Source of the DNA: Escherichia coli
Lineage (GTDB): Bacteria > Pseudomonadota > Gammaproteobacteria > Enterobacterales > Enterobacteriaceae
Length of the DNA: 20,747 bases
Reading direction: 5' to 3' (one strand)
NCBI RefSeq assembly: GCF_003334765.1
Contig: NZ_QOWT01000049.1
The position numbers and the translations under genes were made by a program. The notes below the pieces were generated by a model, which did not search any database, was not told the origin of the DNA, and saw only the letters and a list, made by a program, of their open reading frames with translations. Positions 1,930-4,785 of this stretch are shown here, piece by piece. The stretch's first letter is position 1, and the number at the start of each line of letters is the position of its first letter.

Positions 1930-4785
1930 ATGAAAATGTATTCAGATCACCAACGTAGTTATCTGGCCCACTGGTTGACGTTAAGCGGCAAAGCCGAGGA
2001 CTCGCTGACGCAAACTATTGCCAGCGCACGGGTTGATATGAATCCTCATCAGGTAGAGGCTGCGATGTTTGCGCTGGCATCTCCCCTGTCGAATGGCGTG
2101 ATCCTGGCCGATGAAGTGGGACTGGGGAAAACTATTGAGGCCAGCCTGATTTTGGCGCAAAAATGGGCTGAACGCCGCCGAAAACTGTTGCTGATTGCAC
2201 CCGCAACGCTACGCAAGCAGTGGAGCCAGGAGCTGGAAGAGAAATTTTCGCTGCCTTCACAAATTATTGAAGCGAAGATCTTCAATCAAATGGTTAAAGA
2301 GGGGAGCGATAATCCCTTTGATATTGAAAATGCAACCGGGAAAGCGGCGATCTGCATTTGTTCATACGAATTCGCTGCCCGTAAAGAGCACGAGCTGGCA
2401 CGAATCCCGTGGGATCTGGTCGTCATGGATGAGGCGCATAAACTGCGTAATATCTACAAGAACGATGGCGCTAAAACAGCCAAAAAACTCAGTGGCGCAC
2501 TGTCCGGCAGAAAAAAAATACTGCTTTCCGCCACGCCGCTACAAAACAGTATTCTTGAGCTTTACGGCCTGATTTCCGTGATTGATCCTCATTTTTTCGG
2601 CGACCTTGCTTCGTTCAAGGCCCGTTATTCCCGACAGAATATTGACGATGCAGAACTGGCATTATTAAGGGTTCGTCTGAATAAAATCTGTAATCGAACG
2701 CTTCGTCGACAGGTTCAGCAGGAAGGCGGGATCAGTTTTACCCGACGCCATTCAATAACCGAAGACTTTCGTCCGACGGAAGACGAAGAAGTGCTCTATA
2801 AACAGGTTTCCTCTTATTTGCAGCGGGACGATCTACTGGCGATCAAAAGCGGCGCGCGTCACCTAGTAACGTTAGTCATTCGTAAAATTCTGGCCTCATC
2901 GTCTACAGCGATCCAGGGAACGCTGGAAACGATGATCCACCGTCTTGAAAGTAAAATGCCGGTGCTGGATGCGCTGACGGATTATGAAAATTACGACGAT
3001 TACAGCGATGAAGAAGGCATTGATGACGAAGATACCATCGATCCTCAGGCGCTACAGGCCGAAATTGACCAGTTAAAAAATTATAAGACTTTAGCGGCAT
3101 CGATTACCAAAAACGCCAAGGCCGAAGCACTGTTACGCGTTCTCGATCGGGCCTTTACCTTTACGGCTGAACTGGGCGGATTACGTAAGGCGGTCATTTT
3201 TACCGAGTCCGTACGCACCCAGACCTGGCTGGCGCAACTGTTGTCAGAAAGTGGCTACGAGGGAGAAGTGGTTCTGCTCAATGGCAGCAATAGCGATGCG
3301 GTGTCGAAGAAGATTTACAGCGACTGGCTGGAGAAACATCAGAACTCTGGCCGGGTTTCCGGTTCGAGTACGGCGGATATGAAGGCAGCGCTGGTTGAAA
3401 AATTCAGGGACGAAGGCACCCTGATGATTTGTACTGAAGCGGGCGCAGAAGGTATCAACCTCCAGTTTTGTTCGCTGTTAATCAATTATGATTTACCGTG
3501 GAATCCGCAGCGCGTGGAGCAACGTATCGGGCGTGTTCACCGCTATGGACAAAAACACGATGTCGTGGTGGTTAATTTTATTAATAAAGGCAACCGTGCC
3601 GATCAGCGCGTGTTTGAATTATTGAGCCAGAAGTTCCAGCTTTTTGAAGGGGTGTTTGGCGCATCCGATGACATTCTGGGGTCGATCGAATCAGGTGTTG
3701 ATATTGAACGACGTATTCATGAGATATACCAGCACTGCCGCTCCGATGAACAAATTGAACAGGAATTTAATCAGCTGCAGGATGAACTCAAAGATCAACT
3801 GGAAAATCGGGAGAATGAAACCCGGCGTTCATTATTCGAGCATTTTGACGTTGATGTGGTCCGCAATCTGAAAACCCGACGTACAACCACCCTCGCGCAG
3901 TTAAACGATTACCAGGAAAATCTGTTGCTGCTGGCGGAAATGTTTCTGAGCGACGAGAGCGATTTTCAACGTTCTGAGACGGGTTTTCGTTCCAGAGGAA
4001 AGTATTTTGACGTCAACTGGCCCATTGCGGATGAAAAAGATGCCGAATTCTTCCGGCCCAGCCAGGGATATGGGAAGCAACTGATTGATGCTGCCCTGCA
4101 TGAAGGGGCAAGCCTTTCCACATCCCCAGTTTGCCAGAAGCTCCATTTCATCTACCAACCCAGAAGCGGACAACTGGCCGATGTTAAACTGTTCTGCGGG
4201 AAATCGGGACAGCTGTTGCTGGCAAAAGTCAGCATCGGAAATCAGGAGCAACAGCGAGAGAAACTATTGACCGTCGCTGTTACAGAAAATGGCGAAGTGC
4301 TGGCAGAGGAAACCGTATCCCGTCTGCTTCGCCTGCCATTATCAGAGATAACATCTGTCGAAGAACAGCCTTTGCTGCCTGCGTTAACAACACAATGTGA
4401 GGTTTTACGGCATTCTTTTATCCAACAGGTCGAACGCGATAACGAACTTTATTACAATGAAGAAGTAGAAAAACTTGAACGCTGGTCAGAAGATCGACGT
4501 ATCGCGCTGGACTTACGTATCAAACAGTTAGATGCAGAAATTAAAGAGGCGCGTAAAGCCGCCCGTCAGCTTCCTTCTCTAAAAGAGAAAATGGAAGCCA
4601 AGCGCGCATTAAAGGTGCTGGAACGCGAGCGGGATAGCATCATGTTGCAGTATCATGATGAAAAGAAAAAAATCGAGCAGGAAGAGGACCGTCTGCTGGA
4701 AGAGGTCGAGCAAAAGCTGGCGACGGAAATAACGTCCCGTCAATTATTCGCGGTGAGCTGGACGTTGAGTTCACCTTCCGCATGA
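1930..4785 (+). CDS. SNF2-family (Swi2/Snf2) helicase/ATPase with long C-terminal coiled-coil extension
   Basis: Motif I GVILADEVGLGKTIEA; motif II DLVVMDEAHKLRN (DEAH); SNF2-typical LLSATPLQNSILELYGLISVIDP; helicase-C motifs LMICTEAGAEGINLQ and QRVEQRIGRVHRYGQK. C-terminal roughly 390 aa are charged and heptad-like (EEVEKLERWSEDRRIALDLRIKQLDAEIKEARKAARQL...). The track ORF opens at TTG 1918; ATG 1930/1936 follow AAAGG, so the start is placed at 1930. Confidence 0.9.
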   Translation: MKMYSDHQRSYLAHWLTLSGKAEDSLTQTIASARVDMNPHQVEAAMFALASPLSNGVILADEVGLGKTIEASLILAQKWAERRRKLLLIAPATLRKQWSQELEEKFSLPSQIIEAKIFNQMVKEGSDNPFDIENATGKAAICICSYEFAARKEHELARIPWDLVVMDEAHKLRNIYKNDGAKTAKKLSGALSGRKKILLSATPLQNSILELYGLISVIDPHFFGDLASFKARYSRQNIDDAELALLRVRLNKICNRTLRRQVQQEGGISFTRRHSITEDFRPTEDEEVLYKQVSSYLQRDDLLAIKSGARHLVTLVIRKILASSSTAIQGTLETMIHRLESKMPVLDALTDYENYDDYSDEEGIDDEDTIDPQALQAEIDQLKNYKTLAASITKNAKAEALLRVLDRAFTFTAELGGLRKAVIFTESVRTQTWLAQLLSESGYEGEVVLLNGSNSDAVSKKIYSDWLEKHQNSGRVSGSSTADMKAALVEKFRDEGTLMICTEAGAEGINLQFCSLLINYDLPWNPQRVEQRIGRVHRYGQKHDVVVVNFINKGNRADQRVFELLSQKFQLFEGVFGASDDILGSIESGVDIERRIHEIYQHCRSDEQIEQEFNQLQDELKDQLENRENETRRSLFEHFDVDVVRNLKTRRTTTLAQLNDYQENLLLLAEMFLSDESDFQRSETGFRSRGKYFDVNWPIADEKDAEFFRPSQGYGKQLIDAALHEGASLSTSPVCQKLHFIYQPRSGQLADVKLFCGKSGQLLLAKVSIGNQEQQREKLLTVAVTENGEVLAEETVSRLLRLPLSEITSVEEQPLLPALTTQCEVLRHSFIQQVERDNELYYNEEVEKLERWSEDRRIALDLRIKQLDAEIKEARKAARQLPSLKEKMEAKRALKVLERERDSIMLQYHDEKKKIEQEEDRLLEEVEQKLATEITSRQLFAVSWTLSSPSA

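Follow-up and report, generated by a model that had tools for sequence, protein, structure and literature searches.

Why does a gene for an SNF2-type helicase stand upstream of both a toxin-antitoxin pair and a Type III-like restriction-modification (R-M) enzyme, and to which of the two does it belong? The question is raised by a 20,747-nucleotide stretch of Escherichia coli DNA (contig NZ_QOWT01000049.1 of assembly GCF_003334765.1; referred to as the window), in which five co-oriented genes, separated by gaps of 25, 9, 9, and 2 nt, encode in this order an SNF2 ATPase (IetH), an AAA+ ATPase (IetA), an S8 serine protease (IetS), and the Mod and Res subunits of the R-M enzyme. An annotation made from the nucleotide sequence of the window (the original prediction) had regarded the C-terminal extension of the SNF2 protein as a possible coiled-coil scaffold for the other four proteins and the presence of a second motor beside Res as atypical. 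Our analysis leads to another picture. IetH probably belongs to a family of ~950-residue proteins that have a fixed C-terminal module and Mod and Res as constant partners, the interval between the SNF2 and mod genes being a slot for cargo, here the autonomous IetAS pair; IetH would be an ancillary motor of the R-M enzyme and IetAS a restrained suicide module.

The SNF2 gene (positions 1936 to 4785, + strand) is very probably ietH, also named asaH, of ietHAS (Liu-DS4), a module of SNF2, IetA, and IetS proteins that protects E. coli against T7 and has a reported prevalence of >1.5% in this species (PMC13069673; bioRxiv 10.64898/2025.12.08.692795). We infer this identity because residue numbering, species, and prevalence all match. 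Counted from ATG 1936, the Walker A lysine (GLGKT) is residue 65 and the aspartate of the DEAH motif is residue 165, in exact coincidence with the published substitutions K65A (Walker A) and D165A (DEAH), which in the three-gene construct lead to loss of T7 protection and to cytotoxicity (PMC13069673; bioRxiv 10.64898/2025.12.08.692795). The locus is present in 81 of 5426 complete E. coli genomes (1.5%), and the window agrees with the published module in its three gene types and in their order, the genes for the IetA AAA+ ATPase and the IetS S8 protease being adjacent on the same strand with gaps of 25 and 9 nt. The ietHAS papers treat the system as three genes and are silent on the C-terminal module and on downstream R-M genes, whereas the window has Mod and Res starting 9 nt downstream. 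The gene itself is very probably already published, but its C-terminal architecture and the conserved SNF2-slot-Mod-Res layout with IetAS as cargo are undescribed. The start codon was revised from position 1930 to ATG 1936, since RefSeq (WP_000286652.1, 949 residues) starts there and the codon at 1930 is not kept in the 85%-identical RM9513 allele, which has ATA at 1930 and retains ATG 1936. An AAGG motif lies 6 nt upstream of ATG 1936, and the single long + strand open reading frame (ORF) closes at TGA 4783-4785.

The partners of the SNF2 family were identified by scanning one genome per species (100,044 species genomes) with an alignment of the C-terminal region, which recovered at least 587 relatives. 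The synteny sample consisted of the best 80 of these, picked by C-terminal similarity and distributed over many phyla, and the 42 loci with at least 9 kb of downstream sequence were searched with the window proteins by local phmmer. A same-strand Mod homolog was present downstream of the SNF2 gene in 39 of the 42 loci and both Mod and Res in 38, whereas an IetA homolog was found in a single locus and an IetS homolog in none. The first three distant homologs checked by hand displayed the succession SNF2, variable gene(s), N6_N4 methyltransferase, and ResIII. The distance from the SNF2 stop codon to Mod ranged from an overlap to 5959 nt (median, 1272 nt); a second, rarer gap of more than 300 nt separated Mod and Res in 15 of 53 loci. 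Two of the loci lacking Mod, one with a split Res (L039) and one in which SNF2 is followed by CRISPR I-E (L042), give the impression of systems that have decayed or been replaced, not of a different architecture; the third (L021) contains AlbA_2-like cargo, a 484-residue ORF, and an NsnA-like gene. When the search was started from Res instead, by tblastn against plasmids, all four inspected loci (Aeromonas, Sphingopyxis, Salmonella, and Deinococcus) proved to have a gene for a ~950-residue SNF2 protein upstream. Together, these results show that the constant genomic partners of the SNF2 family are the downstream Type III-like Mod and Res. Because Mod and Res follow in 38 of 42 loci and the association is also recovered from the Res side (4/4), SNF2 beside Res is a conserved architecture and not an oddity; the arrangement is atypical in comparison to EcoP1I and EcoP15I only.

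Three layouts were found within E. coli, namely, the same five genes in the second allele (RM9513), SNF2 followed by Abi, hypothetical, Mod, and Res genes (strain 2014C-3011), and SNF2 followed directly by a different Mod/Res lineage (NCTC86). Over its full length, IetH shares at least 40% identity with the SNF2 proteins of all these variants. An SNF2 gene associated with Type III mod and res genes had already been remarked upon for EcoR22I of E. coli ECOR22 (bioRxiv 10.1101/2023.04.06.535777), and beyond this remark we found no systematic description of the SNF2-Mod-Res triad in the literature. In the EcoR22I type, SNF2 is followed immediately by Type III-like mod and res genes, a gene order that also occurs in the window. 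The NCTC86 locus, placed in this type by layout and Res length only, differs from the window by an empty slot and by Mod (1040 residues) and Res (1126 residues) proteins of a different lineage, the latter without a BLAST match to the window Res; its SNF2 protein is nevertheless 40% identical to IetH over residues 9 to 944, C-terminal module included.

Sequence distances between SNF2 proteins were correlated with those between Res proteins (rho 0.62 to 0.66 in 33 loci), compared with 0.62 for Res and Mod. The distances of the C-terminal module remained correlated with those of Res after controlling for the core (partial correlation, 0.39; permutation p = 0.001). This co-divergence is weakly suggestive of a functional unit. 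Within E. coli, the window and the RM9513 allele encode IetH, IetA, IetS, and Res proteins that are 91 to 95% identical but Mod proteins that are only 67% identical (window 8198-9826 versus L085 15264-16880). Since the window mod gene also has a low GC content (0.417, and 0.354 at third codon positions), well below that of the neighboring genes, the comparison suggests that Mod or its target-recognition region was replaced by recombination and that the two alleles hence differ in specificity.

The interval between SNF2 and Mod was found to collect interchangeable defense or abortive-infection cargo. A protein of ~420 residues combining AlbA_2/Schlafen and HATPase_c_4 domains occupied the slot in 17 loci, HEC-01A/MAD3-like ABC ATPases occupied it in 6, and the slot was empty in 14. 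Additional cargo comprised PDC-S11, DinD/PDC-S13, anti-phage HerA, AbiU/AIPR, LmuB-like SMC ATPases, RmrA/CapP-like proteases, Abi proteins, AAA+DUF4276 pairs, and toxin-antitoxin pairs. Apart from the window, just one sampled locus, from a Hydrogenophilus metagenome-assembled genome (L069, positions 11275-16006), had an IetA-like AAA+ ATPase (475 bits) in the slot. An S8 protease is missing there, and the ATPase is instead accompanied by an RmrA/CapP-like (ImmA/IrrE-type) protein, along with three additional ORFs; the RmrA/CapP-like protein may be an alternative protease partner for IetA-type ATPases.

Did IetAS recruit a helicase, or was it inserted into a system that already had one? In the published reading, IetH is a helicase acquired by IetAS as a dedicated third component resembling an antitoxin or chaperone, and Mod and Res are a Type III R-M system of their own that merely lies next to it in a defense island. 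The reading is consistent with the T7 protection conferred by the three-gene construct and with the loss of protection and toxicity resulting from K65A and D165A (PMC13069673). It also accounts for the spacing of only 25 nt between ietH and ietA, with a good ribosome-binding site (RBS), and for the preservation of the five genes in the second allele. We nonetheless consider it unlikely in view of the rarity of IetA in comparison to Mod at the family loci. IetS homologs with 62 to 70% identity were found in Dickeya, Pseudomonas, Vibrio cholerae, and Klebsiella/Cronobacter. In all four contexts they belong to simple AAA+S8 pairs, and genes for SNF2, Mod, or Res proteins are absent from the vicinity. 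IetH displays no insertion or change in length relative to family members that lack IetAS, and the GC content is a mosaic (0.488 for ietH, 0.512 for ietA, 0.532 for ietS, 0.417 for mod, and 0.465 for res), ietH differing from ietAS. Furthermore, ietS, mod, and res seem to be part of the same operon, given the gaps of 9, 9, and 2 nt. The stand-alone occurrence of IetAS, the absence of an insertion in IetH, and the GC mosaic indicate that an SNF2-Mod-Res system probably received IetAS as an insert; recruitment of the helicase by IetAS is less likely. In Vibrio cholerae (L091/L092, positions 7014-14055), IetAS lies directly upstream of an OLD-like ATPase and UvrD helicase pair, in a Gabija-like layout, and adjoins conjugative transfer (tra) genes, which exemplifies the movement of IetAS as a hotspot cassette.

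The SNF2 core of IetH is followed by a large ordered extension of ~390 residues, as the original prediction had proposed on the size of this region; AlphaFold2 (AF2) models and conservation over 99% of its length both bear this out. The C-terminal 391 residues matched more than 500 proteins over 99% of their length with 31 to 57% identity, and a full-length search showed that typical family members have 940 to 970 residues and align over IetH residues 2 to 944. Because homologs align end to end, the core and the module form one conserved architecture, and sequence alignment shows the module to be conserved from end to end in a ~950-residue DrmD-like family spanning many phyla.

AF2 was run on the C terminus alone (52 homologs; predicted local distance difference test [pLDDT], 86.3) and on full-length IetH (65 homologs; pLDDT, 89.1; predicted template modeling score, 0.88), and both runs agreed on the layout of the segments, all of which are encoded on the + strand. 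The first segment (residues 554-603; positions 3595..3744) consists of brace helices predicted at residues 554-566, 576-584, and 590-600; these helices carry the family-invariant LF(E/D)GVFGASD motif, seen in alignments A1 and A2, and show 62% mean identity to the family. Two long helices (residues 604-633 and 637-671; positions 3745..3948) precede a predicted alpha/beta domain (residues about 678-811; positions 3967..4368), modeled with pLDDT values mostly >85. An antiparallel helical hairpin of 64 and 47 residues then comprises residues 815-878 and 882-928 joined by the turn QLPS (positions 4378..4719). The chain ends with a predicted beta-strand (residues 931-945; positions 4726..4770) that contains the conserved LFxxRWxL motif of the A1 consensus and, judged from its position, probably returns to the alpha/beta domain.

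Profile searches of the PDB with A1 and A2 matched only the helicase core, with no match for residues ~600 to 949, and no solved structure in the PDB matched the module by sequence or, specifically, by fold. The alpha/beta domain had no specific PDB fold match, the hairpin matched helical hairpins such as CT398, Skp, and the LSD1 tower, and the AFDB50 matches of the module were all SNF2/DEAD-type helicases. Every segment of the module is neutral to acidic across the family, the mean net charge of the alpha/beta domain being -6.4. Such a charge makes a DNA clamp unlikely and would suit a rigid protein-contact arm better than a DNA-binding surface.

Is this arm a scaffold? If the C-terminal region were a long coiled coil assembling all five operon products into one complex, an ordered helical hairpin of conserved length would be expected, a surface of this charge would suit protein-protein contacts, and the module might track the divergence of Res beyond that of the core, all of which were observed. 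The coiled-coil claim itself survived in part. The charged stretch on which it had been based (residues 842 to 928) lies in the hairpin, which both AF2 runs predict to be ordered and packed (pLDDT >90) rather than disordered and of low complexity. However, the extension is not a 390-residue coiled coil, as only ~110 residues (the hairpin), or ~180 residues if the coiled-coil-like segment 604-671 is added, are of this kind, and the remainder includes a globular alpha/beta domain of ~150 residues. The heptad-like repeats did not hold either. The hydrophobic periodicity of the long helices, averaged over the alignment, was 3.75 (segment 604-671), 3.70, and 3.55 residues, rather than 3.5, a pattern indicative of amphipathic packed helices and not of clean heptads; a sliding-window scan of the single sequence for charge and heptads was uninformative, and alignment-averaged periodicity and AF2 were used instead. 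The helices of the hairpin are nearly invariant in length (61 to 64 and 42 to 47 residues) across 65 homologs with only 22 to 24% identity, and the segment lengths of the module do not vary with the content of the slot, be it IetAS, unrelated cargo, or no cargo at all, which makes a scaffolding role unlikely for IetA and IetS. A Rosetta-stone search disclosed no fusion to Mod, Res, IetA, or IetS among fused family relatives. A five-protein scaffold is thus improbable.

Fusions of other kinds were assigned by eye. Two relatives have an N-terminal UvrD/AddA-like helicase-nuclease of ~1040 residues (P0129 and P0140), one has an ASCH-like domain (P0178), one has a helix-turn-helix (HTH) and HATPase-like region (P0206), and one has a C-terminal extension of ~500 residues (P0193).

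The helicase core had been correctly recognized in the original prediction. It comprises residues 1-553 (positions 1936..3594, + strand) and forms two RecA-like lobes with motifs I to VI according to Pfam, motif, and AF2 analyses. Motif I (GLGKT, 62-66), motif II (DEAH, 165-168), motif III (SATPLQN, 198-204), and motif VI (QRIGRVHRYGQ, 529-539) were located, and Pfam assigned SNF2-rel_dom to residues 45-310 and Helicase_C to residues 457-540, with no Pfam domain past ~residue 540. The closest solved relative in the PDB profile search was RapA (E = 4e-58), the RNA-polymerase-associated SNF2 ATPase of E. coli, which has a bacterial SNF2 core and an overall length similar to that of IetH, the match being confined to the ATPase core. 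By family analogy, IetH would be a dsDNA-stimulated ATPase/translocase. PADLOC models of HmaA, ZorD, and DpdE-type SNF2 proteins also matched IetH, but the possibility to which these matches and the EcoR22I phenotypes obtained without need of the SNF2 gene lend themselves, i.e., a self-sufficient single-gene defense factor like HmaA that is merely prone to defense islands, is scarcely credible given a gene order and strand fixed with Mod and Res across phyla, a co-divergence of SNF2 and Res as strong as that of Mod and Res, and the absence of a nuclease or other effector domain detected in IetH by Pfam and AF2.

The best family-level match for the SNF2 core was DrmD of class 1 DISARM (PADLOC DrmD, 3e-201). 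Like IetH, DrmD adjoins an adenine methyltransferase, but the partner of IetH is a Type III-like Res. The NCBIfam DrmD model (NF038317) aligned end to end with family members (residues 25-949 to positions 95-1003 of 1021), indicating that the C-terminal architecture is distantly shared with DrmD. The IetH score on this model was 249.2 bits for a cutoff of 610; on DrmD_b (NF038318), IetH reached 661.9 bits for a cutoff of 950 and the tested family members reached 620 to 700, whereas a genuine DrmD_b (P0230) scored 1318. When the large ORFs of the window, nine in all, were run through PADLOC, none of DrmA, DrmB (DUF1998), and DrmC was identified; the DrmA model matched only the SNF2 protein itself, weakly and through the generic helicase core (1.6e-36). 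Class 1 DISARM was rejected on the basis of DrmD scores below both curated cutoffs and of the lack of DrmA, DrmB, and DrmC in the window. BREX BrxHI was likewise rejected; PDLC02500 matched residues 465-869 (5e-75), but pglZ, pglX, and brxC were not detected among the window ORFs.

How might these parts work together? DrmD is thought to act as an ancillary motor or sensor in DISARM. By analogy, IetH may be an ancillary dsDNA translocase/motor or sensor acting on DNA for the Type III-like Mod-Res enzyme, and its C-terminal module could be a rigid arm that contacts the constant partners (Res and/or Mod) or self-associates. IetAS would be held in check while IetH cycles ATP and would be released as a back-up suicide response once a phage blocks the first line. 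The working analogy for a suicide module inside an R-M operon is PrrC, an anticodon nuclease encoded within the EcoprrI type Ic hsd operon, which is restrained by the R-M proteins and freed when a phage blocks restriction; that system differs from the window in R-M type, toxin, and guarding protein. It is the cytotoxicity of ATPase-dead IetH that suggests, by this analogy, a guarding of IetAS by IetH.

Several observations weigh against this scheme. The three-gene ietHAS defends without Mod and Res, so that IetH must also have a function apart from the R-M pair, and a DNA roadblock, rather than release of IetS, could account for the toxicity of ATPase-dead IetH. In EcoR22I, mod and res alone mediate restriction and Ocr-triggered cell death, and transposon insertions spared the SNF2 gene (bioRxiv 10.1101/2023.04.06.535777). 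In at least one related system, therefore, the SNF2 helicase is dispensable for the observed phenotypes. The co-divergence, a mirror-tree signal, is expected for any co-inherited neighbors, and the loci of the synteny sample were the best of at least 587 matches, selected by C-terminal similarity. The AF2 models are predictions, and the hairpin could in reality be intermolecular. T7 with its DNA mimic Ocr, as an example of a trigger for IetAS release, is speculative.

A wider version of the proposal would place the SNF2 protein at the center of a widespread Type III-like restriction system made up of three parts. Any module in the slot, be it IetAS, AlbA_2/HATPase proteins, OLD/ABC-like ATPases, HerA pairs, AbiU/AIPR, or Abi, would be wired to the SNF2 ATPase, which would sense restriction failure and license the suicide module, the C-terminal arm being the docking or signaling element. 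We regard this generalization as tentative, with the odds against it; were it true, the dependence of IetAS on IetH would be one case of a general rule.

Synteny suggests that two published views, an IetAS that acquired a helicase and a Type III R-M system with an ancillary SNF2 protein, describe one and the same architecture. Provided that this architecture is real, new defense genes might be sought between SNF2 and Mod. The SNF2-slot-Mod-Res arrangement also offers a way to probe the coupling of first-line restriction with back-up suicide modules and draws attention to the role of SNF2 motors in Type III-like restriction. The fixed-length hairpin and the alpha/beta domain are a structural module without a solved relative, open to direct mutagenesis.

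The window is 100% identical over 11.2 kb to E. coli O104:H4 and other E. coli strains, and its site is a tRNA-Phe island that also carries pic. A putative promoter (TTAGCA-18-TAAAAT; positions 1864..1893, + strand) was located by a consensus scan upstream of ietH; the sequence AGTAAAATA around its -10 element is kept in the RM9513 allele, in which the flanks have diverged. The original prediction was accurate on the junction between ietH and ietA. The spacer of 25 nt (4786..4810, + strand), the length of which is also 25 nt in RM9513, contains an in-frame GTG (4787) and an AGGAG RBS (4800-4804) and leads to ATG 4811, 25 nt past the stop codon. This ATG is the IetA start chosen by RefSeq, and PADLOC IetA models align from residue 1-2.

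The four remaining genes of the operon are also on the + strand. ietA (4811..5791; PADLOC IetA, 3.9e-105) encodes an AAA+ ATPase of 326 residues, the published antitoxin, with Walker A at residues 127-134 and Walker B at residues 187-192. ietS (5801..8188; PADLOC IetS, 1206 bits) encodes the published toxin, an S8 serine protease of 795 residues, in which the motif matches fit a catalytic triad of Asp 263 (DSG), His 295 (HGT), and Ser 533 (GTS). The Type III-like Mod (8198..9826; 542 residues; PADLOC MTase_III, 967 bits) is an N6_N4 methyltransferase with DPPY at residues 68-71 and FAGSG at residues 336-340. The Type III-like Res (9829..12699; 956 residues; PADLOC REase_III, 2117 bits) is an SF2 helicase-type subunit with GVGKT at residues 76-80 and DEAH at residues 224-227; a PD-(D/E)xK nuclease motif was not located in this protein. 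In the alignment with the closest PADLOC REase_III model (871 positions), Res is covered from residue 86 onward, and residues 1-85 (9829-10083) are left out. Since homologous Res proteins align from residue ~5, the additional 85 N-terminal residues are probably real and merely missing from the model.

In several family loci, a small HTH gene (MAD1-like or HTH_17) or a WYL-domain gene lies directly upstream of SNF2 and overlaps its start (L086 7308-7508, L097 1688-1888, L003 1048-1254, and L095 270-1181). No such gene was found at positions 1526-1935 of the E. coli window, and it may be a regulator that was lost from this locus. Downstream, the interval 13115-15371 between the defense operon and pic contains a fragment of an IS3-family transposase (13483-14076) and a transposase of the IS110 family (14295-15371); in O104:H4 strain FDAARGOS_349, IS30, IS3 fragments, and a group II intron ltrA are found there instead. 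Positions 16158-20276 (+ strand) encode an autotransporter of 1372 residues, named Pic in the matching O104:H4 record. Inside this gene, an antisense ORF (17736-18269, - strand; 534 nt) encodes 177 residues, which we take to be the length of the set1A product, the A subunit of the ShET1 enterotoxin.

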